Assembly (NCBI GenBank): GCA_030295235.1
Contig: AP026137.1
Coordinates: forward strand, 1,054,001-1,118,000
Direction: 5' to 3'
Length of the DNA stretch: 64,000 nt
DNA from: Fistulifera solaris
Lineage: Eukaryota
The first letter of the stretch is position 1. Every line of letters starts with the position of its first letter. Under the pieces are notes generated by a model. It ran no database searches. It was given only the letters and a program-made list of their open reading frames with translations, and was not told where the DNA came from. A program made the position numbers and the translations under genes. Shown one piece after another: positions 13,329 through 53,000 of this stretch.

Positions 13329-13655
13329 TCCCAGGAAATCTGGGAGAGTGGTATTTACACTGGTCCAGAAAATCTGGACTAGTTGTATTTTCACGTTCCC
13401 AGGAAATCTGGGCGAATGGTTTTTACACGTGGCCCAGGAAATCTCGGCGAATGGTTTTTACACGTGCTCCAGAAAATCCAGACCAGTTGTAATTTGTAAT
13501 TTTACTTTCCCAGGAAATCTGGGAGAGTGGTATTCACAGTGCTCCAGAAAATCTGGACCAGTCGTATTTTCATTCTCCCAGGAAATCTGGGCGAGTGGTA
13601 TTTACAGTGGTCCAGAAAATCTGGACCAGTCGTAATTTCACTTTCCCAGGAAATG
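13329..13655 (+). repeat. Degenerate 69-bp double-hairpin minisatellite (~4-5 units)
   Basis: Recurring CCCAGGAAATCTGGG and TGGTCCAGAAAATCTGGACCA. Reverse complement of the 53.0-54.0 kb array. Confidence 0.9.
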
Positions 13656-17579: not shown

Positions 17580-20312
17580 TTAAAAGAATTCCAAACACTG
17601 AGGACATTTGCCAACACAGTTGGTCCAGGCACATCGTTCGGCCCAGGGATACTCCACACTGCTTTTGCACTCCGCTGGACATGTTTCGTCCGTAATACAC
17701 TCGCTGCACTGTGCGCACGAATCCCAAACGCATTTGGTGGGCCATGGTTCTTCGGATGTTTGGCACCAGTCGCGACACACTCCGTATTTCGACATTAGGA
17801 ACGGATCGAATGCCAAGTACTTTCTTGTGTTGGGCCATTCCTCCCATTTCACGTTAATGGGTGTTCGCGCGTGGCACAAATGTACGACATACAAGTCGCG
17901 CAATACACTCATGGAAAAGCCGCCACGGTCAAGTTCTTGGAACCATGAGACTTTGTCGTAACCGTAACCCCGGATACCCGTCCAGAAGCGAGGCACTACC
18001 GGTATGTAACCAATCACGTATGGCTCGTACTGATGCTCCCACTTGATGGGATAATGGGTCGATTCGGTGAAGGTATACCACTTTTCAGCGTTACTTGCTC
18101 TCTGATTGAGCGGTTCAATATCAGAGTAGATGACCCAGGCCGTCTTCTCCCCTATCATACGAACGAGATCTTGCTTCGACGAGGGTAAATCGCTTTCGGT
18201 GGCGTCCACTTCCGGTGCTTGACTCACGCCGCCGGGGCACACTTCAAACGCCGGCAACACAAACAAACTTCGACTGTGGTGCATGTCTTGAAGCATCTGA
18301 GGGTTGTTCTTGAACAATTCGCGCGTTGTGGCGAAAGAGTTGGGAGGAACGATTAAATCTACATCGAGCAACAAGAAGTAGTCTGTACCAGTATTTTCCA
18401 TGCCAAGATTGCGCAATGCGTTATAGGGATAAGTCCATTGCATGGTGGGCTCTGGATACGGCGAAAAATCAACAATCTTTTCCATCAAGATGTGCACGTT
18501 GCTTTCCCGTAAATGCCACGCGATGGTGTAATTCGCAAGCCAGTCCGCGATGAGTTCGACATCTTCGGTGCTCTGTATGTACAGTGCAATAGACCCGGGC
18601 CCATTCCATTTTCGCAAGTTGATGATCAAATTGGCGAGCTTACCATGACTTGCTGAAGCTTGCATGGTAAGGACCACTTGTTCGGAGTTCTCCACGTCAA
18701 CTTTGCGAGGAATGAAATTGACGATTGACTTGCTCAGCGGCGTGGTCAAATTCAACGAATACGCATCGGCTTCTAGCTTCTCCCACTGTTCCATGAGCTG
18801 GTCTTTGTACGTGCGTGGAGTCCAGACCTTTTCCGTCAACATTTTTCGCGCCACCAGATTTCCCAATCTTTCGTAAGGCTGCGATTGGTCAAGTCGTGAA
18901 TGGTCGCTTCCATAGCTTCCACAGACGCCTGACTTTTGGTCTTCACAGTATCGTGAGTATCTCCATCTTTTGTCAAGCGACTGTCGCAAGTGGCGCGGGC
19001 CCACCAGTATTCGGTCTCGTACTTGACCATGATGCCTTTATGCTCCCTGGCCGCCGGCGAAAAAACCATCTATTTGTTCACGTGGTGCGAATAACAGCGA
19101 ATGCGTGAGACATGCTTTGCATTTTGTCAAGGGGAAGCGCACACCCAACGGCTCATCAATCATCATGCTACTTACAAGGAACGTCACCCGTGCGCCTCAT
19201 ATCTCCATCCTTCGCCATGCACGTGAACATATTGCGAGGCGTACGACTGAGCTTCAGATTGTGATAATTCCAAGCCGCCAGGAGCAAATGCTCGGGTGAT
19301 TCGATTTCGTAGAACGTTTCGTTGGAATATTCATTTCGTAGAAACGGAGGAAGTACATCCAGAGCACTGAGGATATCGTTCTTGGACGCCACAAAGTTGC
19401 GATCGTTGATAGCCCCCAGTCCTCGCCTTCCGGTACAACGATGGTGTCTTTCGGCAAAGTAGAAAGATCGTAAGGACACATGTAAAACTGATCGGTGCGT
19501 GTCACAACGAAGCGGTCGTATTGCTCCAGCATGTTGTGCTCTACAATGTGCTGCGCTAACCAGTAGCGCATCATGTTCTGGATGGCTCCAGACGTTTTAT
19601 GGCCCTTGACACCTCCCAATACACCAGCTTCTCTCGCCCTTCCCTGCACCCGAGGTTCCACTTCCTCTCTCCATCCTGGGATATTCAAAGTATCTGAACG
19701 TCAACAACATTACGAAATCGTTAGAGACACGACGGTAAATTAAAAGTAACTCGCAATCATAGCAATACGTACCGAGAGCATCACCCCAATCTTCATATTC
19801 CTTTTCACGAAAGACATATTTGGCTCGCTTCCACAGAGATGCATCGTTGTATTTGTCGTCACTGGAGCCCACAACAAGCCCTAAATCAGCACTATTATAA
19901 TCAAGAACGTTCTTGTAGAGCGATTCCCACGCCGGTTCTCCGCAGCGAAGATTACCGATCAAGAAAACAATAGTGCGATTGCCTGGAACTCTTAGAAACC
20001 GTTGTTTCTCAATAACACCACTCATTAGCACACCATGGCTTAGAATAGCCGCAATTCCAGTTATAAAGAGAACTTGCAACAACATAAACCGACGTTTCGG
20101 TGGCGCACGCCTCTTCAGCGGCGATTGCTCTCCTAGAAGATGTCTGCGCCGACGCAGCGGAGAGGAAGGAACTTCCGAAATGATTACATCTTTTCGTCGT
20201 AACTCTCTGTTTCCGTACAACACATTGTTTCATCTTCCTCGTCCGTCTTTTTAGGATCGTTTTTGGGACTATGGTAAGATGATGGGCTGTTTCGTTTGGG
20301 AATCATCATCAT
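17580..20312 (-). CDS. Two-domain glycosyltransferase-like protein: unclassified GT-like domain + GT49 domain + Cys-rich repeat
   Basis: TM helix, then RTIVFLIGNLRCGE...YDRFVVTRTD...EDWG.INDR...KY..EY, then the GT49 ORF. Introns near 19695-19772 and 19070-19175. Several homopolymer indels must be assumed to join the frames. Confidence 0.65.
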
Positions 20313-21000: not shown

Positions 21001-21619
21001 TAGGGTTCTGTACGGGTTTAACCCTTCATCCGGTGTAACCCTTCATGAAGGGGTGAAGGCCTTCACGGAAGGGTTGTCCGGTCTAACCCTTCCCGTGAAG
21101 GGGTACTCATAACCTATTTTTTTTAAACAACTAACACAATCCTAAATATTTATTCCTAATTTCCTAAAGTCCGAATGAATTTTCTCATTCGACTGAATTT
21201 TCCACTGTTTTTTCTCTTTTGTAACAAATATTCCGATTCCAATTTGGCATTTTGTCAAGTGAGTTCTAGGACTTGAGAGCCCTAGTGCTAGTGGAGGGCA
21301 AGCCCGGAACCCGTTTCCCAATGAGGGGGGAAATCGTCTTGGCATTCCTTCTCTTGGATTCCGAAGAAGCATACTAACCGACCGAACCAGAGAAAGACTC
21401 ATGCGCGCTCTGATGAACCCACAAATCTACTATTCTTTTTGACACTCAAAACTCCACGTGGAACAACATCAAAGGGTTGAAAGTTCAGTCACGCTCGTTT
21501 TCGGCTCGGGACTGAACCCTTCTCGAGAAGGGGTACGGTACATGAAGGGTTCGAGTGTCCGACGGACCCTTCTGAAGTGAGGGTTTGAAAACTGAAAACC
21601 CAACCCGTACAGAACCCTA
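21001..21619. mobile_element. Non-autonomous hAT-type DNA transposon, family 1 (619 bp)
   Basis: Perfect 18-bp TIR TAGGGTTCTGTACGGGTT. 8-bp TSD ATTTCGAG at 20993-21000 and 21620-21627. Subterminal AACCCTTC/GAAGGG motifs. Confidence 0.95.
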
Positions 21620-21829
21620 ATTTCGAGGCATAAAATAATAGTGTAGGGTCTAGCTAGAGAGGTGACAAGCGACAAAGCCTTAACTAGATTTTAGACTACT
21701 TGTATCCTTTTGAGTTTTGAGATGACAAGTGACAAGACTAAGACAAGGTGAGTGACGAGTGAAGAGTGAAGAGCATCCAACTGAGCTGACAACCGAACTT
21801 TGAATGTCGCGGTCTTGACACTCAGCTCC

Positions 21830-22129
21830 TGGAATTCTAAAAGGATAGAGTAGATTGACGTGGGGAGGCCATCGATAGAAACCAGCATCACGGAGTTCAG
21901 TACGCGCACGCGTAAGTATTTGCCATATGCGTTCTTCTCGTTCCGGCGGAACCAAACAAACTGTGAAATGATGAAATTTGGGAGGAGATTCGGACGTCGT
22001 TGCTGTCATCCGTCGGATGCTTCGTTGTGCCGTTTTGTAGGCAACTTTGGCAACGAAAGCACTAGAAGAAGGAATGACAGATACTAGACGGCCGTAAAGC
22101 AAAATTAGAACGAATAAGACAGGTTGCAT
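21830..22129 (-). pseudogene. Truncated 2H-phosphoesterase (2'-5' RNA ligase-like) gene fragment
   Basis: Presequence, then CLVPP...R...D..FYRWPPHVNLLYPF. Similarity stops abruptly and simple-sequence DNA follows. Confidence 0.55.
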
Positions 22130-22349
22130 AGAAGCGAGAAAGGAAGAAATAAATAATAGTAATGAAAGATAAATGCATTGAAGGAAGGAATGAATAAATT
22201 ACCGGGATGCGCGGCATTTATTTGTTGAACGGCAAAACAATCCCGCCAATTTAGTCACGTGTAAAGTTAAGAAACTATAAATTCTACTCGGTATAATCTA
22301 TTATTTGTGTTAATAATATTCCAAACTAAAAGGCTCGGACGGGGAAGTC

Positions 22350-23540
22350 AATATCGGAACCCTGTCTTATTCTTCTCTTTTCGTTTCAGAGAATCAAGTT
22401 GAAATGAAAAATCCGGGGCAGGTGAAAATGACATCCTCAGTTGCCGGTTTCGGAGTACTGGTACTAGATTCGTCGAGATCCGCAACTTCCAAAAACTCGC
22501 ACAATACATCCACATGTTGTGACAAGAACAATGCAAGATAATGTTACGTTTTCAGTTTCTGTTCTACCAACGTCGTCGCCACCAGCACTCGTCGCAGTGT
22601 GGAAGACGACTCTTTCAAAAGGTTTACCGACTGGTGGTAGAAGCTATTTAGCGCATAGAGATCGTCGATGCCAGATCCATTCGAAATCCTGTCTTTTAGA
22701 GGTTAAGAACATCAATGCTCCGGTTGCGCGAAAGTAGCTTTTCAATCCAGGAGTAAAGAGGGTGCCATGGGAGATTAGAATCGTCGTCCTCGTCGTCGGA
22801 GGTATAGTCATGGGATGGAAAGTTCACGAGAAAGGTTCGCAGAGATTTGTGAAGATCCTCCAAATGAAGACCCCAATCTAGATAAAAATGACTATCCCGC
22901 AAATCAAGACACGTCGAGTTTGTATTGGCCTTGACTGCACCGTTCAACGCTGCTGCAACAGAGGTGAGGCGATCAATTTGGAATGCATCTTTGTCTTCCC
23001 CTTGCCAAAATTGAATCGAAAGGGACAGCCGTTCGAAATGACCCAAATGGGCCACCCTTTCCAAAAAATGAAACAAAAAGACAATCCCAGTCTCTCCACT
23101 CATGCAATTGGATCGTGAGGCTTAGATCCTTTGTCACTTTGTCGAGCCACTGGAAATCCTCGGGCTGAAGTAGCTCGAAAGAACATCGTATTGTTCTAGA
23201 GCTTTCACGTTGGCGGAAAGTGGCAGCAGCTTGAGTTTCTTGTCAAGCACAGGTATCTCCAACACTTCAAATATATCCGGTTGTTACAGCCGTCGCATAT
23301 TGTCTGTAGTGAAACCCATATTTTTGGGATAGAAAACAATCTTAGGGAACCAAAGGATGATGTTCGACGTTCCAATGTATTGACAAACGCTGTCCGCCGT
23401 CGGTGAACGCAAAACCATTCGCCGACGAGGAGTGATCGTCTTTGCCGAGTTCCAGCTTCAATGGGTACGGTCTTGACGTAAAACGACGGACTGTTGCGGG
23501 TTAAAGGTACCCTTCTCGAATGAATTCGAACATTCGTCGT
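22350..23540 (-). pseudogene. Degenerate member of a diatom-expanded RNI/LRR-like hypothetical family; 5' part missing at the satellite
   Basis: Fragments in shifting frames: SRPYPLKL..GFAFTDGG.AFV..LERR.SSFGSL, LGHFERL, LLSRNR.I.V, ID.LY.LN.FY, H.DVLCEF. Confidence 0.6.
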
Positions 23541-23544
23541 TTTG

Positions 23545-25566
23545 ACGAAAGATGCAACGCTTCGGAATGTCTACGTAGATTTCACGTAGCGCTCGTAAGG
23601 AAATTTAGCGACAGAGGGGGAACCCGGATATGGGAAAAATTCGATACACCATTTTCCAGGTCTTTTGGGCATTAACGCCATCATCGCTTTCACCGAGATC
23701 TATATATCGTCCCAACAAACAATTATCGTCATTGAAGCGACTGTAATACATAAAAACGCACGAAAGGTGCAACGCTTCGGAATGTCTACGTAGATTTCAC
23801 GTAGCGCTCGTAAGGAAATTTAGCGACAGAGGGGGAACCCGGATATGGGAATAATTTGATACACCATTTTCCAGGTCTTTTGGGCATTAGCGCCATCATC
23901 GCTTTCACCGAGATCTATATATCATCCCAACAAACAATTATCGTCATTGAAGCGACTGTAATACATAAAAACGCACGAAAGGTGCAACGCTTCGGAATGT
24001 CTACGTGGATTTCACGTAGCGCTCGTAAGGAAATTTAGCGACAGAGGGGGAACCCGGATATGGGAAAAATTCGATACACCATTATCCAGGTCTTTTGGGC
24101 ATCAACGCCATCATCGCTTTCACCGAGATCTATATATCGTCTCAACAAACAATTATCGTCATTGAAGCGACTGCAATACATAAAAACGCACGAAAGGTGC
24201 AACGCTTCGGAATGTCTACGTAGATTTCACGTAGCGCTCGTAAGGAAATTTAGCGACAGAGGGGGAACCCGGATATGGGAATAATTCGATACACCATTTT
24301 CCAGGTCTTTTGGGCATTAACGCCATCATCGCTTTCACCGAGATCTATATATCGTCCCAACAAACAATTATCGTCATTGAAGCGACTGCAATACATAAAA
24401 ACGCACGAAAGGTGCAACGCTACGGAATGTCTACGTAGATTTCACGTAGCGCTCGTAAGGAAATTTAGCGACAGAGGGGGAACCCGGATATGGGAATAAT
24501 TTGATACACCATTTTCCAGGTCTTTTGGGCATTAGCGCCATCATCGCTTTCACCGAGATCTATATGTCGTCCCAACAAACAATTATCGTCATTGAAGCGA
24601 CTGCAATACATAAAAACGCACGAAAGGTGCAACGCTTCGGAATGTCTACGTAGATTTCACGTAGCGCTCGTAAGGAAATTTAGCGACAGAGGGGGAACCC
24701 GGATATGGAAAAAATTCGATACACCATTTTCCAGGTCTTTTGGGCATTAACGCCATCATCGCTTTCACCGAGATCTATATATCGTCCCAACAAACAATTA
24801 TCGTCATTGAAGCGACTGCAATACATAAAAACGCACGAAAGGTGCAACGCTACGGAATGTCTACGTAGATTTCACGTAGCGCTCGTAAGGAAATTTAGCG
24901 ACAGAGGGGGAACCCGGATATGGGAAAAATTCGATACACCATTATCCAGGTCTTTTGGGCATTAACGCCATCATCGCTTTCACCGAGATCTATATGTCGT
25001 CCCAACAAACAATTATCGTCATTGAAGCGACTGTAATACATAAAAACGCACGAAAGGTGCAACGCTTCGGAATGTCTACGTAGATTTCACGTAGCGCTCG
25101 TAAGGAAATTTAGCGACAGAGGGGGAACCCGGATATGGAAAAATTTGATACACCATTTTCCAGGTCTTTTGGGCATTAACGCCATCATCGCTTTCACCGA
25201 GATCTATATATCGTCTCAACAAACAATTATCGTCATTGAAGCGACTGCAATACATAAAAACGCACGAAAGGTGCAACGCTTCGGAATGTCTACGTAGATT
25301 TCACGTAGCGCTCGTAAGGAAATTTAGCGACAGAGGGGGAACCCGGATATGGAAAAAATTTGATACACCATTTTCCAGGTCTTTTGGGCATTAACGCCAT
25401 CATCGCTTTCACCGAGATCTATATATCGTCCCAACAAACAATTATCGTCATTGAAGCGACTGTAATACATAAAAACGCACGAAAGGTGCAACGCTTCGGA
25501 ATGTCTACGTAGATTTCACGTAGCGCTCGTAAGGAAATTTAGCGACAGAGGGAGAACCCGGATATG
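23545..25566. repeat. Tandem array of a 215-bp unit (9 full units plus one ~85-bp partial)
   Basis: TGCAACGC(T)TCGGAATG recurs at 23553, 23768, 23983, 24198, 24413, 24628, 24843, 25058, 25272 and 25487. Only a few SNPs between units. Confidence 0.98.
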
Positions 25567-25817
25567 CCATCATTTTTTTTGTGCGCTGCAATGACAAAAA
25601 TGGAAAACGCAGCGAGACGCCATTACCAGGTACCTGTTATACATTAACTGTTTTATCTCTTGTCTATAATGATTTATCAATTAAGATAAACATGTAGATA
25701 TGCAATTCTCCTTCTGAAAGGATCGCCTGCTTTTGTAACGAAAACGAACGTCCTCATTACCCGTGTACATTTTGCAGGGAACGGTCAGTCATTCGGCTGC
25801 TATCAATGCTCTACTCT

Positions 25818-26791
25818 CTACTCGTGATGCCCATGATGATAGTCTTTATGATGCCCGTGGTGATAATGCTTATGCTTGTGGCTGTGTTCGTACTCATCTT
25901 CGTGGCCATGCGCGTAATGATGCTTGTTGCTGTGACTCTCATGTCCATAACTGTCGGTATCCTCGACGTATTTCTTGTGACCTTGCGTCTTCTTTCCTTT
26001 GCCGTGGTGCTTGTACCGATAAGCGTGCTCAGTTTCCTCATCAGCGCTGTATTCGTACTTGTCGCTGCGCTTACTTTCATCATGATGCTTGTATTCATCG
26101 TGGTGCTTATCCTTTTGGCGTGCTTGTTTTTATTGTAATGTTCGTACTTTTCGCTGTGCTTGTCCTCCTCATGGCGCTGTTTCTTGGGGGCTTTCTTGTG
26201 CTCATTGTCGTATTTATAGCTATCATGGTATTCGTACTTTTCACTGCGCTTGTCCTCCTCATGGCGCTGTTTCTTGGGGGCTTTCTTGTGCTCATTGTCA
26301 AATTTATAGCTATCATGGTAATCGGACTTGTCGCTGTGATCGTCGTCGTGGTGGCGCTTTTTCTGAGGGGTGTGCTTTTTCTCATCGTGGTATTCGTACT
26401 TTTCGCTGTGGCGGTCCTCTTCATGGTGCTTTCCCTTTCGAGTGTGCTTCTTTTCCCTGGGATAGTTGTCCTTATCATGGTGTTTCTTCTTTTCATCGTC
26501 GCGATGCTTCTTCTGAGGACGGTGCTCGTTTTCGCGGTCTTTCTCTTCTTCGCGCTTGTTCTTCTGTTTTGGAGTATCCTTATCTTCTTCATAGTCTTCG
26601 TGGTGTCGATTATGGCGATTGTGCCTGTTATGGCGATCATGGTGACGATGGCGGAGATTGCGCTCTTCTAAATCGCTCAACGGTTGTTCTGGAACAAGCG
26701 AAGAGCTGGCTGCCCATGTAGTAGCCGACCGATAGTTTCCCATCCCGGCCATTGCAGCGACGAAGAACATCAAGGAGAGAAGAGGATTCAT
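25818..26791 (-). CDS. Secreted His/Lys/Glu/Asp/Tyr-rich low-complexity protein with an RXL motif
   Basis: Signal peptide, then EERNLRHRHH, then a 30-aa internal repeat. Restoring one A near 26113 gives a His-rich tail ending KDYHHGHHE* (stop at 25818-25820). Confidence 0.8.
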
Positions 26792-27667
26792 GGTGATGGT
26801 TGCAATTCTCTGAATTCAGTGAAACATAAGGTGTGAGGTCGAAATCATGCCATGTTGAAACTCCAGAGGCCGCATCTTTTGTCCATCGCACTTGCCTGAA
26901 TGTCCGTCACTTGTTTTTATTCTACTGACTATCGAAGCGAGTGAAATATCAATGCTTCGAACGGCAGATTAAATGAATTTGTAAGAACTAAGAGAACAGA
27001 CCCTTTTCTTGAACAACTACATCCGAAGGGAAAGCGAAACGAAGAGAGACATGAGAATCAGTTCACGAGATGATTCATGCGAAACATTATTATCCCTAGC
27101 TCATGTAGGAAGATCGGGTTTTGTGGTTTGGAACTAAGGGCCCACAACACCATCCGCGACCTCCGGCACCTTAGCTTGGAGATTGGGGGCCATTTTTTCC
27201 GCGCCGGCAAAACGCCGGCAAGGTCTGTCATTGGATGACACGACTGAGAACGTGCGGAGTGTCTTACGTACTTTTGGTAGCACACTACAAATCGTGTTCA
27301 TGTCTTCGATCGAATGTTCTTCTCTCAAAAGAGACGCGACATTGTGATTCTGCAAGTAGTCGACGTTCTCGTCATTTTTGTGAGATGCATGATGGTGTTC
27401 ATTTCTCATGTTCTTGTGATTCTTAATGTTGCAAGTACACCACAATCCATCTAAAGCAACATTATGCCTTTTGATCATGCTTAAAGCAAAACGATCGACT
27501 CAAGCATCGACTTTCTAACAGTGAAGGAAATCGAATTCCTTGTTCGTTCACTTTGCACCTTGCTTTGCACACCTCATTCCTCCGCTCGAACGTTTCAAGA
27601 GAACCAAACGATAGAATCGAATCTGCATTTTATTCACCTGCGAATCTTGGAAGCCACGCTGTAGATC

Positions 27668-28552
27668 ATGTCGCCGTCACAGCAGCGAATGACGTTCGGA
27701 GCCATTTGGAAAGATGTGATTTCGAATTACGCATACCTCATCACTCCGGCAACAATTCTGATCTTATTTGTGCATCTTGTACGAGTTCTTCTTTTAGCGA
27801 CAAGTCAAATGTACCACGCCAGCTACAATGCTGAGCAAGGTGGAAATCAAGACACTTCCTGGTCGCCTATTTATCATTATCATGATGACGAAAGCAACGA
27901 CTCGCGATGGTTCCGCGCTGAACCGCAAACATATTCACGATCGACGCTGTACTGGACGGTTTTAACCGGCTTGGCCTTTGCTATGGAATTAGTGTCGCGC
28001 TTTCATATGCACGCCTTCCTCGCACGCGGTTGTGCGGACATTTACAATGGCAAACAAACGGACTGGATCGAGATCTGCAGAACCGTTCATTCGAAATGCG
28101 GTGTCGCTGGCATGATGCTCCTCTTCCTGGTCACAGTCTGTCACAATAAACTGTACGGCGAAACATTCTATCTGCTATTAGCCGCGCTCGGTTCCAGCTT
28201 TCAGAAGGGTCACGGCGATACGCTCAACGACGAGTTGATTTTCTTGCTGTTGGAACTGTGCATGCTCGTCTATTTCATCGGTCCCATGCTTCTCGTTCTA
28301 CCCGTCTACATGAACGAGAACGACGATTCCATGACGTGTTGGAAGGCCACGCGACGTGCTTGGCAACTGGCGTCGGGATACCGTTGCTATTTGTACACCT
28401 ACGCCACTATCATCATGTCCATTTCGGAGATTGCGATCAATTCCATCAACTACGTCGCGGTCTTGTGGCTGTTTGGAAAGTCCACAATCATTGCGAACCT
28501 GTTGCACGGGCAACTTCAGCATATTGTGCTGCCCCCACTAACCTGCATGTAA
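27668..28552 (+). CDS. Multi-pass membrane hypothetical protein (may continue after the GTAAGT donor at ~28549)
   Basis: 294-aa ORF with several hydrophobic helices. Confidence 0.55.
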   Translation: MSPSQQRMTFGAIWKDVISNYAYLITPATILILFVHLVRVLLLATSQMYHASYNAEQGGNQDTSWSPIYHYHDDESNDSRWFRAEPQTYSRSTLYWTVLTGLAFAMELVSRFHMHAFLARGCADIYNGKQTDWIEICRTVHSKCGVAGMMLLFLVTVCHNKLYGETFYLLLAALGSSFQKGHGDTLNDELIFLLLELCMLVYFIGPMLLVLPVYMNENDDSMTCWKATRRAWQLASGYRCYLYTYATIIMSISEIAINSINYVAVLWLFGKSTIIANLLHGQLQHIVLPPLTCM

Positions 28553-29225
28553 GTTTGCTCAGTCTGATCATTGTTTTTGTTTCCTGGTCAAAGTCTTACG
28601 AAATGGTGTACGCAATGATAGCGTGGGATCGGTGTTGCATCATCATATTCGTGAACAGAAAGATAGCGAAGCAGCGGTGGCTAGCAAGCAGAGATCCTCT
28701 TCGACTGTAATACCTGTTCTTCAGGCGACTCCCGTGTACGCAACCACGTTTTGAATGTTCCTCTTTGCAATGCTGCACAGCCGTAATCTACTCTTTTGGT
28801 AACTTTTTGATATCTGACCTACAGACAGAGATTGGCAAGTTGTTTGAATGCGTTCATGGCCCAGTTTTTGTGCTCTAGCTTGTGAGTGTGATCAAAATGT
28901 AGAATAACGCTTTAATTTGTTTGTTTTTAAGCCTCGACGGCTTCTTCTTACTTGAATATTCCGTCCAGCTTCGTGCTTTAATCCATCCTGTTTGGTCGGA
29001 CGAGTCGCCGCGGACGTCTTCGTACCTGGTATGCTAAACGAGAGTCGTCGTTATGGTGCGATGCGCCCTTGGCTGCGAACCAGGTAAAGAGTTGTCATTA
29101 TCGCTCGGTGCGACCTTGGCTGTGAAAGCTGGTTCTGCATTCCGTTTAAATCCGATGGCTATTGCAGAGTCATAAATAAAAATAATAACCAGCTATTTAT
29201 GTATGTAATCGGGACAAACTGATGT

Positions 29226-30596
29226 TTACGCGATCGCTCCACGCAAAGAGGAAGCGACAGCCTTATCGCAAGTCACTCCGATCTGCTGCGCCATTTCCGC
29301 CTGCTCTGCATTCAAACACAAGTTACCCATTCCCTGAATATCGCAGAACTCACAAGCATTGCCATCCGAGTCTGTTGCAGCCTTGCAGCCATCTTTCGTC
29401 GGGTTCTGCAAGAAGGAAAGAGCACACATCGGATCGTAGGGGTCCTCGACAGTTTCTTCTTCCACTGTCATGTTCGACGAGGAGTCGTCGCAAGTAATTC
29501 CAATACTATTAGCGATCTTTGCCTGTTCAAGACTGAAACACCAAGGGGTTCCTTCCAAGTTGCAGAATGCACAAGTGTTTCCATCCGAATCAGTCGAAGT
29601 CCTGCACGCTTTTTCCGTAGGATTCTGAAGGAAAGCTAAACCGCATGCAGGATCGAAAGGGTTCTCAATAGCCTTTCCTTCATCTTTGATACTTGCGATC
29701 GACGAATCACAAGTGACCCCGATCTGCTGCGCCATTTCCGCCTGCTCTGCATTCAAGCACAAGTTACCCATTCCTTGGAGATCACAGAATTCACAGGCAT
29801 TGCCATCCGAGTCTGTTGCGGCCTTGCACCCGTCCTTTGTTGGGTTCTGCAAGAAAGAAAGGGCGCACATCGGATCGTAAGGATCTTGTGCCTTTACCTT
29901 CTGTGAATCACAAGTCACTCCGATTTGCTGCGCCATTTCCGCCTGCTCTGCATTCAAGCACAAGTTACCCATTCCTTGGAGATCACAGAATTCACAGGCA
30001 TTGCCATCCGAGTCTGTTGCGGCCTTGCACCCGTCCTTTGTTGGGTTCTGCAAGAAGGAAAGAGCGCACATCGGATCGTAAGGATCCGCGACGTACAAAG
30101 AGTCTTCATTTTCCGTGTTTTGATTCTCCTCTAGATCGTTCGCTTCGCAATCAAACCAATCACTCTCTTTCGCAGCATCCGCCGAAGGACCCGTCATACA
30201 AACTCCAAAACCTGCTTTTGTCTTACACCAAGTACACTCGGCAGCATTACAAGCGTCGGCAGTCTTCTGCAACAAGCACTTCCAGTAGTTATCAGGGATC
30301 GTATCATCCGAAGGACTGACACCATCATCGGTTTCGGGCGCCGCATCATCGTTACCGTTCGGTCCGTTTCGTTCACATTGTACTCCCGGGACACTCTTTT
30401 CCATCGATTCCGCTTGTCCTTCATCAACACAGAAACCAAATTGCGAGAGAGAACACCAGACGCAATTTGATCCGTCATCATCCTTGTGACTCAAACAATT
30501 CGGTTCGTCGGTAGCGGAGAATGTGCAGGCAAACTGCGCGTTGGCTACTTTGCTTTGCAAAAAGAGCAGAACGAACGATGAGACAATGAACTTCAT
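29226..30596 (-). CDS. Secreted acidic Cys-rich repeat protein
   Basis: Signal peptide; four ~60-aa DPYDPMC...QIGVTCD repeats, three of them near-identical; ends SSLRGAIA. Confidence 0.9.
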   Translation of the reverse strand: MKFIVSSFVLLFLQSKVANAQFACTFSATDEPNCLSHKDDDGSNCVWCSLSQFGFCVDEGQAESMEKSVPGVQCERNGPNGNDDAAPETDDGVSPSDDTIPDNYWKCLLQKTADACNAAECTWCKTKAGFGVCMTGPSADAAKESDWFDCEANDLEENQNTENEDSLYVADPYDPMCALSFLQNPTKDGCKAATDSDGNACEFCDLQGMGNLCLNAEQAEMAQQIGVTCDSQKVKAQDPYDPMCALSFLQNPTKDGCKAATDSDGNACEFCDLQGMGNLCLNAEQAEMAQQIGVTCDSSIASIKDEGKAIENPFDPACGLAFLQNPTEKACRTSTDSDGNTCAFCNLEGTPWCFSLEQAKIANSIGITCDDSSSNMTVEEETVEDPYDPMCALSFLQNPTKDGCKAATDSDGNACEFCDIQGMGNLCLNAEQAEMAQQIGVTCDKAVASSLRGAIA

Positions 30597-30869
30597 GATA
30601 GCTACAACAAGTTTCTAGCAATAGAAAGAGAAATAAGGATTGTGCGAACACCACGAATGAAACAAAATCTTTCCGCTGCGGCAAGTCTTTTCTTTCGCAC
30701 TATTTGCTGTCAACGCAAGAAAGCTGGAGGCATTTTCTTTCCGGTTCCGTTGCGTCGTGATTCGTGATGATTCGTGATATCCACGTATACAATATAAGCG
30801 TACTGTAGTTATCTACTATACTACAGAGAGTCCACTTCTTGTTGCTGGCGTCACCACTCACAATGCGAT

Positions 30870-31355
30870 TATAGATCCAAAGTGTTGTCCGATTTCGCCA
30901 CGACTGCACTGCAGTCACGAACCAATATTCGTTTGAGCGACAATGCTGCCTAAAATTCGTTCGTTCGGCTTAATTTTTGAGCTTATCTTGTCGGCGTTGC
31001 AATGAGATAGGCCCTAGCAGCATTCTCATTACACGTCTTTGTAAATTACGTCGAAGAGCCTTTGCCAAACGTTTTTCCGTATTTACTATAGACCCAAAGT
31101 GTTTTCCGTATTTCGCCACGACTGCACCCAGTAAAAATAAATAAAAATTGAGCGACAATGCTGCCTACAATTCGTTTGTTCGGCAAATATTTTGAACCCC
31201 TTTTGTAGTCGGTTGCAATGAAATAGTCTTTAGCAGTATTTTCATTACATGTTTTTCTAAATTGCGTCGAAGCGCCTAGCGAAAAGCATTTTTCCGTATT
31301 TACTATAGACCCAAAGTAGTGATAGTTCAAGGAGACCACGACTGCATGTCAGTCA
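30870..31355. repeat. Diverged tandem repeat, 217-bp unit, ~2.2 copies
   Basis: TATAGA(T/C)CCAAAGT at 30870, 31087 and 31304. Shared TTGAGCGACAATGCTGCCTA. Confidence 0.85.
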
Positions 31356-31424
31356 GGAGTCATGAATTATTTTATTTGTCCGAGCCAGATTTTGACATCA
31401 CCAACATTCAATTACCGGTATTTA

Positions 31425-32667
31425 CAGCTGGTGTCCGATCGTCTCAACTCCATGTAGCCCTCGTAGAAGCCTACCACAACGGAAAAAACATGATTTGAGT
31501 ACCGGTCCAAAAACTCCTCCAAACTCTTTTTATCGCGACAAATTTCGTGTTGTTTTGACGATGCCGATCATACCATTCGATCACTGATAACTCGTTCTAA
31601 ACATCTCACCTCGTGGATCTAAAAACATATACTGTGTAACTTTTAATTTCGCGTCGAACGGTATAACTTGATCCACGAGATCAGATCATGACGGACTTCA
31701 AAAACATCGCAAGAACAAGGCACTCACTTGTTGGTCAAGTTGAATTGGACGATTGTCATGAATACGTTGATCTGTGACGAAATTTTCTTTCCGTTTCTTA
31801 TCAAATACAGCCCATTTTCGGCAATTACGTTCAAGAGGGACTTTAGACGTGCCAATTTTGTCCGATCAATCCTATTCGAAGTCCCTCATTAAATGCCTCA
31901 TGTTGGTCTTCCGGAAGTTTACCGTAATCAAATCAAGGTATTATGACCAAATAAAGAAAGCAAGCGCGCGGTTCATTATAACTTCGGCAAGCTCTTATGA
32001 AGAGAGGACTTGGGGCGATGGCAATCATAAACGACCTCGAAAAGATAGTAAAGAAGTTAAAGACTTCCGCTGTGTCATGAATTTTGACGGGTGTTTCGTC
32101 AGGGCAGTGGTGAATACAAAACGCAAATAATCTTTGATGAGAAAGCAGCTTGAGACATCAAATGAGTGGAGCGATTACCAGCCATCAGATAGAGAATTTG
32201 ACGAGGAACTGGCATAACTAATAATTTTATATACTAATTTGTCAATATTTACATCGTGTTTGCTTACTGGTGATAGAGTTCTGCTTCAGACTGAGTAAAC
32301 TATTAAATATAATTATGAACAATGATGTATTTTAGTCAAACAAACCTATACAAGTGGGAATCGTCAGCCTGCATAACATAGTTAACATGACTCATGACTG
32401 ACTAGTGACTGAGGCGAAAATCTAGGTTAATCTCATTTCAAGGTCAAGAAAACACGAAATCGAACCAGCTAACCGTAGATTATATTCCTACATGTGTAAA
32501 ATTGTCAACAGAAGGAATAAAATGTAATTGAAATTGAGTTCATGATTATTCTTTCTTAGATTCTTTACTTTCAATTGACTCCTACGGAGAAATGGGACGT
32601 AGAAAATGTACTACACGTAGATTTTCGTACGAGGGTAGATGGTGCTGTGACGATCGGACACCAGCTG
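31425..32667. mobile_element. Tc1/mariner-type non-autonomous or decayed element (1243 bp)
   Basis: 19-bp perfect TIR CAGCTGGTGTCCGATCGTC extending imperfectly to ~50 bp, flanked by TA on both sides. No intact transposase is visible. Confidence 0.9.
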
Positions 32668-32728
32668 TACAAGTATGCAAGTTTGATTTCCTTTTGCTCT
32701 CTAAGAGGTACAGCGTACAGTACAGCTA

Positions 32729-32912
32729 CAGCTGGTGTCCGATCGTCTCAGCACAAAGTAGCTCTCGTACAAACATACCACGACGAACAAAAAATGATTT
32801 GAGTACCGGATCAAAAACTCCTCCAAACTCTTTTTATCAGCGACAAGTCTCGTGTTGTTTTGACGCTGCCAATCATAGCATTTAATCATTGATATTTCGT
32901 TGTGAACTTCTA
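32729..32912 (+). mobile_element. Second, truncated left end of the same Tc1/mariner-type element
   Basis: ~185-bp direct similarity to 31425-31605, starting TA|CAGCTGGTGTCCGATCGTCTC. Confidence 0.85.
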
Positions 32913-32920
32913 GTCTCGTG

Positions 32921-33499
32921 CCAATGTCATTCAACTGCGAATATTGATTGTAATTACGAGTAAATAAAGTTGCAACAACGATGATTCTGATTTATTTGTT
33001 AAATTTTTTTTATTTTCACGTCGAAAAGCCGAGGATCGACACCATGATTTTCCACTATAAAACGGAGTGTGGGTTTACGCCAGCCAAGACTGGATTGTAC
33101 AGTAGTCATGAACCGAACAACAAAAGGTTCCGTTTTGCGTCTCTCGCGTCCGTCCAATGTCATTCAACTGCAAGTATTGATTCTAATTACGAGTAAATAA
33201 AGTTGCAACAATGATGATTCTGATTTATTTGTTAAAATTTTTTTTATTTTCACGTGGAAAAGCCGAGGATCGACACCATGATTTTCCACTATAAAACGGA
33301 GTGTTAGTTTACGCCAGCCAAGACTGGATTGTACAGTAGTCATGAACCGAACAACAAAAGGTTCCGTTTTGCGTCTCTCGCGTCCGTCCAATGTCATTCA
33401 ACTGCAAGTATTGATTGAAATTACGAGTAAATAAAGTTGCAACAATGATGATTCTGATTTATTTGTTAAATTTTTTTTATTTTCACGTCGAAAAGCCGA
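32921..33499. repeat. Tandem repeat, 233-234-bp unit, ~2.5 copies
   Basis: CCAATGTCATTCAACTGC at 32921, 33154 and 33388; units near-identical. Confidence 0.95.
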
Positions 33500-33671
33500 A
33501 CAAAACTCCACCATGGGCGCGACGGCGACGATAGGGGGGCGACGCGAGGCAAACTTGAGCAAACAAATGCTAATAATGTAAGTCAATAATCTTTATCTAT
33601 TCGCTATCTGTAATACAAGCAATCTACGCAATAAGATGTTGATCAACGAAACAGCAATGAACTAAATGAGG

Positions 33672-34840
33672 TTACAAAACTACTCTTTCTTTTCGATTAT
33701 GAACGTCCTCCTCGCGTTCTTCTTCCTGCCTTGCAAGCACCAAACACGGCGTCGGCGGTGTTACAGGAGCAGAAACCGGCTTAGGGACAGGAGCATTCGC
33801 AAGTGTAGGTGAACTGACTCCCACTGTACATGAATTCCCTTTGCATTTAAGACCGTTGCAACAATCTCGATCGGATTGACATCCCCAAGACAAGGCGTTG
33901 CAATTCGTTAAGGCGCCGTTGGCTAGCCAAATGAAATCGCCGTCGCAAGCATTGCACGTTGCCTCTGTTGTACCACACCAAGATGCATCGCAGCTTTTGA
34001 AAGAACTCGAGCAACAACCTGTAGTCGGAGAAGCGACCGGTGATGACTCGACGGGCGATGAAGCCGGTGATGTGACGGGGGAACCAGCCGGAGACGAAGC
34101 TGGTGATGTGACAGGGGAACCAGCCGGAGAAGTCGCGGGTGACCGCTCGGGCACACAGGAACTGCCACTGCATCTAAGTCCGTCACAGCAATCTGTATCT
34201 TTGTAGCATCCCCAAGTCCTCGGGTTGCAGTTCGACATGGGTCCGTTCCATAGCCAGGTATAATCGATGCCGCATGCCTCACAAGCTGCTTCCGTCTCTC
34301 CGCACCACTTTGCATCGCAATCTTTGAAAGAGCCAGAGCAGCATCCGGGCCCACTAGAGGGAGGGAGAGGCGAAGAAACTGGAGAAGTTGCTGGACTGGT
34401 GGGTGCTGTAGGACGATAGGACCCACGGGGCAATCGTACTCGGTGCACGCACCGTCGGGACCTCGACAGTAGGGTGGTGTACTAGTGCTCGGAAACAGCG
34501 GAAAAATTTGAATCGAATATTTTTGAACCGGTTTTGGTCGAATCGGTTTTGAAACCGTTTAGTCAAATGTCCCGCAACCACCGTAGAAATAGCCAAAAAC
34601 GTCGTCTTTCCACTTTCAATGACGCCGAATAGGGCAAAATGTACTCTTTGGATACCGCTACGATCACTCCGGTACTCGATAAAATGAAACGGTTTCAAGA
34701 AATTCCAACCAATTTCATAATTTTATGGGTAATATTCGGTTTGAAACGGTTTCGCCCCAAACCGTTCCGAGCACTATGGTGTACACTCGCACTGACACGT
34801 TTTCCCGTTGAACTTTCCAAACACCAGTCGCATGACGTCA
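33672..34840 (-). pseudogene. Partial paralogue of the CE4 gene C-terminus (EGF-like plus two Cys-rich modules), disrupted by a MITE and an 8-bp insertion
   Basis: Removing the MITE gives FGKFNGKTCQCECTPPYCRGPDGACTEYDCPVGP, matching FGQFNGETCQCDCTAPYCRGPDGACTEFVNCPVGP of the neighbouring gene. Confidence 0.8.
34483..34776. mobile_element. hAT-type MITE, family 2 (294 bp)
   Basis: 12-bp TIR TAGTGCTCGGAA; 8-bp TSD TGGTGTAC; subterminal AAACCG/CGGTTT motifs. Confidence 0.95.
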
Positions 34841-35426
34841 ACCTGATACAAAACAGTAGTGAAGTTTGCTTTTTCACAGAAGTGTGTAGCCTGTCACTGC
34901 CTTAAATGCAGTCACGACCGTGCGAAAAGATATCATTATTTAAGATCCATCATATTTTGTGTCCTACATTTTTAGCCATCAGGACTTAAAGCGCCATTTA
35001 AAAACCATCTAAGTCTACATCATCCTTCGTAGAAAACGGGGAAGATCCTAATTGAGTATGAAGTAAGTAGTAGATTTATCTCCGTTGTAAGTTGTTAAGT
35101 ACAGTTCTGTGTACTTTGGACGAGATAACTCAGCCAATCCCGATTACAGTTTAGAGTACAGTCGAAATGTAGTCTTGTTTGTTTGTAAAAGTTCTTTTGG
35201 TACTGGAAGACATTTTGATACTTTATAACGGTGAGACATGTGTTTTGTGTTTTGTGTTTTGTTCCACAACAGGAAATCTCAACAGCTTCGCAACAGTTAC
35301 AAAAATACAGTCTTTGAATCATATTCGTTTCATTTCTAATATTCATTTATTGTTTTGATTTATAATATAAGCAGACTCTATCAGCGGATACGATGAAAGA
35401 AAAGGAATGACGGGTGCGGCATTCGA

Positions 35427-36877
35427 TTACTCGGACGTACACGAACTTCCAAGGCATTTGAGTCCTTCACAGCAATCTTCATCAGCCGAACATCCCCACA
35501 ATTTGGCTTTGCAATCATCGTTTAAAGCGCCTTTCGATAGCCATTTCATTCCTCCAGTACAAGCATTACACGCTGCCTCGGTTTTTCCGCACCATGTTGC
35601 ATCGCAATCCTTAAAAGAGCCAGAGCAGCATCCTTTTACACTGGAAGGAGAAGTGACTGGTGATTTATCGACCGGAGAGGTCGCTGGACTGGTGGGTGCT
35701 GTAGGACCCACGGGGCAATTGACGAATTCAGTGCAAGCTCCGTCGGGGCCTCGACAGTAGGGCGCAGTGCAATCGCACTGGCAAGTTTCTCCGTTGAATT
35801 GTCCGAACATGCAGCCCGTATCACGAGGCGCAAAGCATAGCTTTTGTTCAGGGCAGCTTTGCACATATTGCGATGCCGGAACCGGGTTTTGCATCCACTG
35901 CAAAGTTTCATAGGATGTGACAAAGAAGACATCTTCGTAGGTGTCCATGATTTCTTGAATCCAAGACGCAAAGACGTCCCCGTTTGCCACCAGCCACGAT
36001 GCATGGAAGAAGAGTCCAAGAGGCGCTCGATTTCCGTTGTAGCGTTTCAAGAAATTGGGATGAATCAAATCGGTGATGACGGCGATTCCGCCTTTGGGAT
36101 TGGGATAGTCCATGGGGATCTCGGCTTGATTGTTCGCGTCGTACAGAGACCACATAGGTATCTCCCAAAGACCAGGAGCAGGGGATATTTGAACGCTTGG
36201 TTTGACGGTCTGAAACTGATCGATGTTTGGTTGTTCGAGAGTGAAAGGCCACGTGTGATTGCGGCCTCTCTGATTTGCCGTATGATCGACCGGAGCTATC
36301 GACGAATCGTAGAGAAAGCCCAGCTGATGCAAGTTTTGGAGCGTGCTATCATCCCAGTTAAGGAATGGAGTCCGGAAGCCTCTCATTTCTTCCGCGGGGA
36401 CACCGCATTCATCCGAGAGCCAATCAACAGCCCCCTGAATCTGTGTCATATTCGGCAAACCGATATGATTGAGAGTATGCGTCGCGATTTCGTGTCCTCC
36501 CTGTCGCAGTCCTTGCACGTACTCGCATTTTGTGTTGGTCCCTTCAATCGAGACGTAGAACGTCGCTTTCAATTTACAGCCCGTATGAGGATCTTTCGTT
36601 TGAGCGATTTTCGAAAAGAGAAAGGAAGCGTACGGAGTTATCGCGTCATCAAACGTAATTGCTAAAAACAAAGGAGTGTCTTCAATTGCAATTACATCGG
36701 AGAATGGAAGGCGAGAAATGGGGAAAGTCACTTGAGCCTGTTATGTTTTATTAAACAGATGCGGAATACAATGAGATACTTTTCTTTGTGAAAGCTACAT
36801 TCAGAATGCGATTGGTGTGTAAATACCTGAGCAAAACATCCTAAGATGATCAATAGCAGTGAAGTCATGAAGCTCAT
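35427..36877 (-). CDS. Secreted CE4 polysaccharide (chitin) deacetylase-like protein with a Pro/Ser/Thr linker and a Cys-rich C-terminal module
   Basis: AITFDDA, HEIATHTLNH, GFRTPFL, LYDSS, NRAPLGLFFH motifs. Signal exon MSFMTSLLLIILGCFAQ; intron 36738-36826. Confidence 0.9.
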
Positions 36878-37867
36878 TGTCTTTGTTGTTGCTGTCATAA
36901 CTTGTGTGTGTGTTTTGTTCTCTTTTTGTTGGCGGGTTTGAATTGTTCGCAAATACTAAAAAATGAGCAGTACCGGTATCTTTGATTGCTAGCTAATGGT
37001 TGCTCGCTGCTTGATTTTAAATCATGGGCGTCTTTAAAGAAACAGCAATCAGGAAACGTTTTGGGTTTTGAATTACATTGGATTGTTGGTCTCAGGAAAA
37101 ATGAACGAATATATAAAGCTAAATGAGATCGTTCAATGTATTAAGGCTCTATACACTCCATCTTGACTTAAGCATGCTCGTATACATAAGATCGTCCGAT
37201 ACCAGTTTCCGTTTGTGTTTTAAGTTGGTTGAGGAGTCTTTATCCTTTGATTGTTTGCGGTTAAGGCGCGATACTTATGCCTACATCACAACGAAACTAT
37301 TCTAAGAGTAAACCACGCTTTCGTTCTCTACCTGTTTTGTGATTCGTACTCGTGAAACACTATAGCATAACTGTAAACTCTGAATTCAAGTCAGTTCATC
37401 GTCTCGCAACGCAAAGTTACCATCAAGGGGATTTTGTTATCTGCGAAATTGTCGGCGACAGAATGAAGGGTCAAGAAAGGCTTCTTCGTCAAATTAGTAA
37501 TGATTTTGAGCCTGTCGACATCTCGTAGGCGATACAGCAGCAAATCTCGTCTGCAGTAACTCTGTGTTGCCCTTATCAAAGCTTCATCGCTTATTGAAAT
37601 GAATATAATACACAAATGGAAATGAATGATGAATATGATGAACATAAATTTGTGTTTGTCTCGTGACTGAAATTTTTTAATTTAGCCGGGAAAAAAGTAA
37701 TCTACATTTTGACCTATAGTGCTTTGTGTGAAGCCCTTTCGAACGGAAAGTCGACGCAATTAACCGATCGGCGATCGGTCACTTGCAAGTGGAAAATGTC
37801 AACAAAAAGGATGTTTACGCTCGTCTCAAGCATGATGACAACCATTTTAAACTCCAACCACGAGAAA

Positions 37868-37957
37868 GACAACAGATGCGACGTTTCGAATGTCTACGCG
37901 TAATTTACGTAGCCGCCGTAGGAAATTTATCTCTATAGGAGAACCCGGATGTGACAT
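37868..37957 (+). repeat. Solo diverged copy of the ~90-bp core of the 215-bp satellite
   Basis: AGATGCGACGTTTCGAATGTCTACG...ACGTAGC..CGTAGGAAATTTA...GGAGAACCCGGATGTG aligns with the array core. Confidence 0.8.
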
Positions 37958-38133
37958 AACCGTGATGTATGCTTCCGGCACTCACAACGGACATTGTTTG
38001 TCCGTTGTTATCGCCTTGTCCGCCGTAATACATCACGGACGACGACTACTTGTAATTTTGTCAAAAGTTCTCTCGTCTCTTTCTTGTGATTATTTGTCTC
38101 TGAATACATGTATCGTCATAAAGGAACGCTCCA

Positions 38134-41100
38134 ATGACGACTCTATCCTCTTTAGGATTTACGATGGTCGGCGCCGGCGGAATGGGAGCTATCGCGGTTA
38201 CTTTATTCGGTTTTGCCGTCAAACGGAGATCGCCCTTTATTGCCCCTCGCGCTACGGCACGCCCCGCTTCTGTTATTTATCGCGGAGAACGTAATCCTTG
38301 GACGGGATGGATCCCTGAAACAATGAACTGGACGTATCATGAAATGCTGCAAGGAGTTGCTGGAACAGGAACAAGAAAACAAGGAGAGCATGGACGATTG
38401 TTAAATGTCACGCTCGATGGAATTGTTGTGCTGCGATTTCACGCCTTGTGTATGCGTGTTGCCTTGTTTGCGACTGTTTTATTTCTATTCATACTGCTGC
38501 CTCTTTATGCGACAGCAGGCTGTGCGGATGCGCCGCAGTGGAAGGGTTGTGCCGGCACAAACGGCACTTTTACGGATTACGAACGCCTCACAATGGCCAA
38601 CATTCCTTCCGTATTCACACCCACCTATTCCAACAAAACCACAGGAACACCCGATGTCACCAGTGTCCGCGCTCGACTATTTACGGTTGTTTTAGTCTTT
38701 TGGGCGGTCGTCATTTACACTTGTTGGCAATTGCGCCAGGAATGGCGAGAAATATTGGCAATGCGCAGAGTATACTATCTTGAACACGATGTTTGGGGAG
38801 CCAGGCAAGAAGAATTGAAGGAAACACTTTTATATAAATCTACGGAACCAGTTCATCACAGAAGCAATAAATCGAGCAGTACGCACTGTGATCAAGATGA
38901 ACCGCATTTAATCCATCGTGATCCGTGGATTCCTCATCCGGAACCAAGAGAAACGGTCCCCAACGTCGCATTGTACAGTTTGTTAGTCGGATGTTTGCCT
39001 TCTTTGCCGGATCATTTGTCGAAACAGCAGGCATTGCAAGCTGAACAAGATCAGCAGCAGCCATCGTCGTTACTGGATTGGCAACTGGAAATGGCGGTCA
39101 CTTTCTTTGACCATTGCATACCCAACAATCCTGGTTTCAGCTCCAGCGTTGCTGCGGTCACTATTATGCCATCGCCACAATTGTTAAGTAAAGCATGGCG
39201 AAAATGGTACACAGCAGCGGCAAAATTGCGACGGTTGCGGTTCATACGTGATGTAATTGCGCAAAGGAGGAAATACGAAATTGCCATGCATGCACGAGAA
39301 GAGGCTGATATTGAAAGAGGCGACCGATCAGACGACCGCGGAATAGAACAAGCCAAAGACGCTGTCTATGATCGTGACGAGCAGTGCGACGGCAATGATG
39401 ACCTGGGTATTGATTCAGAGGATACCTTTTCACTTCCATTCGATCTGTATGGCGATGATCCAAGTAATCCCAACGCTGGTATTTATCAAGACCCCACTCG
39501 TTATAAAGACTACTACCGTGCAGTATTGGGAATACTCGATGAAAATGACGATGTTTACGAATTTTTAAAGTTTGGACCGGAGCAAGCTGCTGTGTACAGC
39601 CGCGAGTTCGCTCAAGCTGCTGCACCATGCTGTCCACGGGGCTGCTTCGAATCGTACATTCGTGACAGCATGAGCATTGATGAGCTTGTCGATTTGGAAC
39701 AAGACTTGGCTGAGCAAGTGCATGCGGCAAATCTGGAACTAAAACGAGCGCGCCAAAAAGCTGCTGCCCTGCAAATACCCGGGAATTCACCGAGTCAACA
39801 AGCTGCCTTGATCCAATCGAGCTCAGTTTCTCTACCAACGTTGAATTTAGAAGGCAGTAGACACTTCCAAGACACAATTTTTCGTAAATCTGAGCGTCGG
39901 TCTAAGCCCGCTTGGGACTATTTTGTTTCGCGTGACAATACACTGGAATCAAAGTTATATCAGAAACGAAAAGAGAAGTCTCAAGCTGAATTTACGCCCA
40001 ATTATAAAAGCAGCGCAGCGTTGCGAATCGAAACCATTCCCAGTGTCGAAAGTGCGGTGTCGCAAGAGCAGCAAGATGTATCAACCTCGGAATGGGATCA
40101 AGTTGTTGCATTGTTACAGGAACAGCAACAATCCGTCCGCAGCGGCAGCGGATCCATGAGACTTCCTGATGGTCGGTGGCAGTGGCCATCCTGGAAAACA
40201 CTATGGGGAGCGACACGAAAAACTCCAGCAAAAGCATGGCGTACGAACAAAGCTGTAGTCGAAAGCTTGTCACGAGATTCGACGTATGCAGTCGTAACGT
40301 TCACTTCGCGGCAGGCAGCCATTGCGGCGCGCCATTGTCTAACCGATGGTCGCGCCGCAAACCGATGGCTGACTTTGAAAGAACTGCCGATCCCTCCGCT
40401 CGCCGACGCACCGTCTTGCAATATAATGGCATGTAGAAACTGCTGTCGTCCGCTGGCTCTGGGTGCGAATGAAAGGCAGAAAAACATTCGCCTCATGATC
40501 GCCTTGGCAGTGTTGGCGGTTATCTACACACTGTACACGATTCCATTGACGGCGGCTTCGGAATTCTTTTCCCCTTCCCAATTGAATATGTTGTTTCCTG
40601 AACTCAAGGATTTGTCCGATCAATATGGATGGCATTTGTCTGGGTTACTATCTGGTCTTATCAGTGCGATTGTTTATACAACATTCTTCGCGTTGTGTCC
40701 ACTTCTATTCAAAGCCATTGCTAATTTTGGAAGTAAGGCTACCAGTGTTGCGGGCGCAGAATTCCGTGCACTTCAGTACTATTGGTGGTTTATGGTCTTG
40801 ACTGCTTTTTCCGGACAGATTCTGGCCAAGATGACGCTCAGTGCATTCAACGAAGGCTTGAACGTTGGAAGCGATCTTCAAAGTATTGTCCGAGATATTT
40901 CGCAAACGATTCCTTCTAAAGTTGCTCCTGTGTGGCTGAACTGGATTTTTGTTTCGGATGCTGGCAGTGTTGCCATTCCAGTACTTACTCCAAGTGAACA
41001 CGTTTCTGTTTTCCTTTTTCCGAATGCACTGCTGTGCACGAATGGTGATGGGAGGCGGCCCTGGTTGCACCATGCCCTATCGGATCTACGTCGATAGCGG

Positions 41101-52990: not shown

Positions 52991-53000
52991 CGTCCGCAAC

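Follow-up and report, generated by a model that had tools for sequence, protein, structure and literature searches.

In Drosophila euchromatin, young Rsp-like or 1.688 repeats enter older clusters by interlocus conversion or by the reintegration of circles (Sproul et al., 2020, PMC7403614), and wtf genes have spread to pre-existing dispersed copies of 5S rDNA (De Carvalho et al., 2022, PMC9562144). Here we describe a repeat family of the diatom Fistulifera solaris through a 64,000-nucleotide stretch of its genome (the window, which lies on contig C17 of assembly G000, paired with the homeologous contig C18), in which a tandem array at 23545-25566 alternates a core, A, with a spacer, B. The core belongs to an old, dispersed, intergenic family with hundreds of copies, in which a conserved stretch of ~85 bp recurs with a ~213-bp period. 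On balance, and with little more than even confidence, we take the core for a protein-binding module beside promoters, directional and subject to molecular drive. The observations behind this reading are the dispersal of the core, its positional conservation between subgenomes, its polarity, its conserved spacing and its homogenisation in one subgenome, and from these we infer a function at the side of promoters.

The family shares with the Rsp-like and 1.688 repeats its short tandem arrays dispersed among genes, the apparent spread into older clusters and local unequal exchange, differing in that invader and target are here one family, the target being the ~85-bp conserved core, and in a strict polarity toward gene starts of which the Drosophila passages of that report make no mention (PMC7403614). 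The parallel with wtf and 5S rDNA lies in an A-B-A layout at sites that hold a solitary A in the sister lineage, in paralogs that are closer than orthologs and in the same test by synteny, while the present repeat carries no coding cargo, has a core that is not a known RNA gene and is amplified in tandem (passages of PMC9562144).

Strict core patterns gave 309 and 361 exact matches in the genome, against none for the reversed-pattern controls. The contigs of G000 come in pairs, one subgenome being repeat-rich and the other repeat-poor, and among the first 100 matches listed for each pattern the cores lay on C1, C3, C5 (and C7), with none on C2 or C4. Most arrays alternate two core subtypes, A1 and A2, in a ~425-bp dimer (A1-B1-A2-B2), with A1 monomers, including the window array, forming a minority; the largest tandem amplification reaches 14 cores (L124).

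The core lies with strict fixed polarity beside gene starts, which is a new observation. Codon-model gene calls were made on 88 loci, leaving aside 7 homeolog duplicates. On the 5′ side of the core the closest gene pointed away from it in 66 of 70 callable cases, as against 44 of 67 on the 3′ side (p 2.5e-5), and tandem intergenes split 14 to 1. A check against Pfam, using the longest open reading frame (ORF) per strand on each side with an ORF minimum of 90 as against 110 amino acids, gave a match on the 5′ side at 33 of 84 loci, where the nearest gene pointed away without exception (33/33), and on the 3′ side at 37 of 82 loci, where 24 of 37 pointed away (p=8.7e-5 between the two sides). Because gene starts are common on the 3′ side as well, the polarity suggests a need for a gene start on the 5′ side rather than avoidance of one orientation. 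The genes beside cores are largely of housekeeping types. Spacing is regular too: on repeat-poor contigs all 17 of the 17 neighbouring cores within 1.5 kb were 202-240 bp apart. Compared with the young consensus, old units (n=15) retain an identity of 0.75 in the core and 0.61 in the spacer, and the mutual identity of repeat-poor spacers, 0.56, is near the alignment floor, shuffled ones giving 0.51. Old arrays thus keep the 202-240-bp spacing while the spacer decays, and between loci the length of spacer B is kept as its sequence turns over.

Both the window array and a solo core at 37868 obey the polarity rule, their neighbours being the following.

21680-23121, minus strand: gene 5′ of the array, pointing away from it, with a 2′-5′ RNA ligase-like domain in 21683-22198; its 5′ extent is judged from ORFs and the homeolog alignment.
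25811-26815, minus strand: ORF 3′ of the array, ending toward the array, with no Pfam match.
35427-36740, minus strand: polysaccharide deacetylase ORF 5′ of the solo, pointing away from it.
38122-41097, plus strand: OSCA/TMEM63-type (RSN1) channel ORF 3′ of the solo.

Conservation of position between subgenomes was examined at 19 repeat-rich-side loci with placeable homeolog flanks (L031 and L032 were not placeable). A diverged core was present at the same homeolog spot in 12 of the 19, a tally made by hand in which five loci had been chosen by an old-type pattern; excluding these and the solo leaves young-family arrays only, at 7 of 13. Off-target core clusters numbered 2 in about 418 kb of homeolog DNA, also counted by hand. 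Four further pairs found from the repeat-poor side had cores on both sides, five repeat-poor-side loci without an ortholog being left out of the pair comparison. The 19 loci divide as follows.

With a homeolog core: the solo, L040, L043, L065, L078, L080, L095, L141, L142, L146, L147, L169.
Without a clear homeolog core: the window array, L034, L041, L045, L046, L094, L145.

In several pairs the alignment of the homeolog flank enters the outer core and resumes past the last core. Copies in the repeat-rich subgenome are more like unlinked paralogs than like their own orthologs. In all 6 pairs compared, spacers had identities of 0.53-0.63 to orthologs and 0.61-0.93 to the best paralog; cores were closer to an unlinked paralog than to the ortholog in 11 of 12 pairs. 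The best-paralog values are inflated, each being the highest among many copies. Judged from these comparisons, ectopic recombination probably placed young units in cores that were already there, and the units then expanded. A sequence-only reading of the window had proposed that a repeat recombined into dispersed A sites; this holds in part at the level of the family, where 12 of 19 sites have old cores and arrays tend to start and end in or beside A, and fails for the array and solo from which it was drawn.

The array itself comprises 9.4 units of 215 bp with 97% matches, its units being 97.7% alike, and divides into 10 A cores and 9 spacers, so that the A(BA)9 layout described earlier is real. 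Its parts are these.

23000-23544, no strand: left host flank, to which the homeolog aligns as far as 23544; an independent run shows the same junction.
23545-25566, plus strand: A(BA)9 array of the monomer (A1-only) subfamily.
23545-23632, plus strand: first core A, retaining the family-consensus AGATG that is lost in the inner copies.
23570-23589, no strand: palindrome (23570-23579) and inverted pair CTACGT-N7-ACGTAG (23571-23589).
23633-23759, plus strand: first spacer B, about 130 bp.
25479-25566, plus strand: last core A, in which CCCGG at 25557-25561 aligns with a CCCGG of the homeolog flank.

The outermost cores do differ from the inner ones, as had been noticed, the first reading AGATGC where the nine others have AGGTGC and the last GGAGAA where the nine others have GGGGAA. 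The palindrome and inverted pair are likewise present as claimed; they are conserved without covariation and may together form a bipartite site for a protein. A contig of run X2 (21971-23620) spans the left flank into the core, and because it bridges the two the left junction is not an assembly artefact. The tandem joint from 23759 back to 23545 was seen in two runs, and such a go-back joint in contigs fits tandem DNA as well as extrachromosomal circles. No target-site duplication was found.

The window can be aligned along C18, and in the OSCA gene the two agree at 334 of 435 four-fold sites. In place of the array the homeolog holds a 5.4-kb segment of its own (C18 912224-917616, covering L086 and L087). 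In it lie a phosphatase/nuclease-like gene whose paralog (85%) is at C17:724k and a Copia-like remnant, both named by eye, along with a duplication of 230 bp and an array of 34-bp repeats. Comparison of the homologous site, which had been suggested as a check, showed no core in these 5.4 kb between the array flanks. The CCCGG shared by the last core and the homeolog flank may be either microhomology or the relic of an old core.

The solo copy is also real (37868-37957, plus strand; E about 2e-9), an old core of subtype A2 whose ortholog at G000:C18:926110-926201 is 79% identical. It had been taken for the empty site of the array, sharing the variants of the outer junctions, and this part does not survive: the solo is 75% identical to the array core, being A2 as against A1, it has its own ortholog on C18, and the C18 site of the array holds no core. 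The shared variants can be seen in the letters and are not diagnostic. Across 82 loci, which together have 337 full cores, the consensus of the family is GATG (124 cores, 54 loci) and the rare variant is GGTG (17 copies at 6 loci), while GGAGAACCCGG occurs in 8 cores at 6 loci, internal copies of other arrays included, such that its sharing by solo and array is an uncommon match resting on a single base. The outer G at 23544 is host DNA, because C18 aligns up to it; the bases 3′ of the CCCGG at 25557 align weakly with the homeolog flank, the C18 alignment resuming about there, and those trailing the array are probably host DNA as well. By this tabulation and alignment, the supposedly diagnostic junction bases are read as host flank, family consensus or recurrent variants.

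In keeping with recombination at dispersed A sites, the ends of arrays are unevenly placed. Among 54 multi-core arrays, with 4 duplicate or mis-anchored rows set aside, 30 begin within unit positions 15-60 and 37 finish within 60-120. The conserved core itself contains 21 of the starts and 21 of the ends, which exceeds the expectation for uniform phase (p 7e-5 and 3e-4), although the bias is partly an artefact, inflated by spacer decay. The earlier expectation that other arrays would not start and end at random phases is therefore borne out as a preference for core A or its vicinity and not as a fixed base, the commonest start accounting for 3 of 54 and the commonest end for 4 of 54. First copies differ from inner ones mainly in the 5′ half (110 vs 44 differences, 22 arrays); for last copies the excess in the 3′ half is less clear (78 vs 66, 20 arrays). 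A composite block, a partial A1-B1-A2 with fixed unrelated flanks and 2 to about 10 cores, was found at L038:1430-2045, L092 and L146. Pieces of arrays thus also move as larger units; a carrier element with shared flanks was considered for the family and rejected, only few composite copies being found.

We suggest that young units, mostly the A1-B1-A2-B2 dimer and here the A1 monomer, would have been copied into resident cores in one parental lineage, either through ectopic gene conversion or when excised circles reintegrated, and may sometimes have entered sites where no core is detectable. Flanking cores would then exchange unequally and yield A(BA)n with mosaic outer ends, the window array being such an expansion at a site where the homeolog has no detectable core. 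An A(BA)n array with odd outer ends is also expected from unequal exchange between two flanking cores alone, and no enzyme encoded by the element would be necessary. In the less supported step, the core would persist at the side of promoters as a directional cluster of protein sites with nucleosome-like spacing.

Several points weigh against a promoter-side module spread in this way. The distance from the start codon to the first core is broad (65-1068 bp, with a median of 339 bp that is inflated by missed first exons). Conversion alone could keep cores alike without selection. No core was found in the 5.4 kb opposite the window array, and six further homeolog sites (7 of 19 in all) have no clear core, with weak relics at L034 and L094. 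The best-paralog identities and the bias of array ends toward A are inflated, as stated above, and the direction of change is itself presumed from a comparison of the two subgenomes. A rival reading is a functionless selfish satellite, in which conversion keeps the cores alike and polarity arises from breaks or template switches at promoters: spread and the A(BA)n layout need no function, and the core would be dispensable at the 7 sites that lack it. We nevertheless consider such a satellite unlikely, as core blocks and the 202-240-bp spacing persist where repeat-poor spacers have decayed almost to the alignment floor, and as tolerance of gene starts on the 3′ side shows that the polarity does not come from avoiding one orientation. 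Also doubtful, if a shade less so, is the broader proposal that the core is a functional directional cis-element (a promoter boundary or a replication origin) at hundreds of housekeeping promoters that propagates itself, new versions homing into old copies by homology and amplifying at nucleosome spacing, such that one parental genome rewrote its promoter-side DNA wholesale.

A promoter-linked replication origin, whose excised circles would carry the origin, replicate and reintegrate at homologous cores, seems improbable to us. The layout resembles the GC-rich autonomously replicating sequences (GC-ARS) of Pichia pastoris, a directional motif near gene starts with an A-rich tract 5′ of it that is scarce in convergent intergenes (passages of PMC3945215); cores occupy the same directional position beside gene starts, with the gene start 5′ and few convergent sites, and have an A-rich bin at -40 to -20, and two 9-base blocks occur in the same order in the core and in the published diatom centromere/ARS motif. 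The GC-ARS is a single 20-bp yeast motif with no tandem period (PMC3945215), the likeness being one of layout and analogy with no sequence homology claimed. Homology to the centromere/ARS motif was itself rejected as marginal against shuffles (34, 755, 98 and 9 of 1000; 13 of 200 for old cores), and that motif sits in a retrotransposon-like tail. A non-autonomous mini-element mobilised by a rolling-circle or recombinase enzyme, with A as nick or attachment site, is less probable again. It would account for the clustering of array ends in A, the small potential hairpins with GNA-type loops and the use of cores as landing sites, yet the arrays have no fixed terminus, no target-site duplication and no covariation. 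A tyrosine recombinase is not indicated: PF00589 gave 0 matches in the genome and 14 of 14 in control prokaryotes, divergent eukaryotic enzymes being able to escape it, and there is no fixed crossover site. Helitrons have fixed termini with a 3′ hairpin, which the family arrays lack, and a search for RepHel gave no match in the genome, though the positive control gave none either. Terminal-repeat retrotransposons in miniature (TRIM) and solo long terminal repeats (LTR) have fixed TG...CA ends and a 5-bp target-site duplication, neither of which was found, the primer-binding site not being searched for. The passages of PMC10288648 on Replitrons give them short terminal repeats at defined ends and report none detected in diatoms, and the array ends here are variable (no search aimed at Rep was made). 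The core had no match in viral contigs, and a metagenome scan gave one, judged to be chance, in AT-rich bacterial-looking DNA. The earlier suggestion of a targeted or rolling-circle mini-element accordingly finds no support here. Very improbable, finally, is a structured RNA resembling a retrozyme or short interspersed element, retroposed as the divergent transcript of the neighbouring promoter. Divergent transcription would fit the polarity, and one RNA-library contig, which may be DNA, covers only the unit (23555-23741, depth 4.5). Against this, a structured RNA or ribozyme array was rejected because there was no Rfam family (4 weak matches far below gathering scores), no consensus fold across cores and covariation at or below that of shuffles (two-sided change at 1 of 11 pairs in three hairpins, with 491 of 500 shuffles as high). 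There was no tRNA in the core repeat and no duplication or tail, and single-strand folds did not exceed shuffles (z 0.41 and -1.48 for RNA, -0.8 to 0.5 for DNA).

The 3′ block of the core may resemble a Reb1 site. In yeast, Rap1, Reb1 and Abf1 sites mark the upstream edge of promoters (passages of PMC6602560). Like them, the core lies hundreds of bases before housekeeping genes, and it could limit divergent transcription and phase nucleosomes; repression by Rap1 is independent of orientation (PMC6602560), whereas the core is directional. In an allopolyploid Fistulifera diatom, promoter motifs biased between subgenomes were tabulated as TCCGGGTW, RCTMCGTA and ATTTATCG (Table S4 of PMC5935921). 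These read like pieces of core A and may derive from its repeat, although the table has them as separate short entries, not all under one subgenome, with no repeat recognised in the parts of that paper seen here (PMC5935921). No account of the core-A repeat was found in the literature searched, with subscription journals outside its scope; supplementary Figures S5, S7 and S16 of bioRxiv 10.1101/2021.11.10.468027, the last on unnamed intergenic repeats, may bear on a prior description.

Other repeats lie nearby. Window 21114-21435 (minus strand) holds a 5′-truncated copy of a non-LTR retrotransposon-like element with the C-terminus of a restriction-like endonuclease, without Pfam or PDB match, which we take to be CRE-like; a 5-bp duplication may accompany it, and run X1 contains an empty-allele joint. 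Its tail carries ‘centromere/ARS’ motifs 1 and 3 of bioRxiv 10.1101/2021.11.10.468027, as far as the parts of that preprint seen here define them, and 5 of the 39 exact pattern matches of the motif in G000 coincide with copies of the element; the published motifs may represent the tail of a dispersed retrotransposon. Units of 34/69 bp make up a second dispersed intergenic family, which occurs at window 13331-13654, 52997-53741 and 53837-53962, beside or replacing A arrays at L034, L038 and L043, and in homeolog gaps. Tandem duplications with periods of 201, 216 and 234 bp (29704-30086, 30870-31317 and 32921-33499) have no match to core A. Tandem paralogs at 14904-19037, 33576-36740 and 43598-45184 comprise two glycosyltransferase-49 genes and polysaccharide deacetylase genes. 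Elsewhere in the assembly, the end of C4 has 99% identity to C55:17.5-22.5k, A array included (L091/L093), a possible duplication or homeologous exchange, and a match between C3:2.673 Mb and C18:0.812 Mb (87%) departs from the usual pairing of contigs (L121/L138), a possible translocation.

To our knowledge, few cis-elements or replication origins of diatoms are defined by sequence, and the core offers a directional, conserved candidate element of ~85 bp at many diatom promoters. The young repeat family marks one subgenome, and genes present twice within a nucleus, one copy beside a decayed core and the other beside a renewed array, provide a natural control by which molecular drive of regulatory DNA and homoeolog bias become directly testable. 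Were the core indeed a functional element that propagates itself, it would be a genome-wide cis source of homoeolog bias in expression or replication timing in this hybrid.

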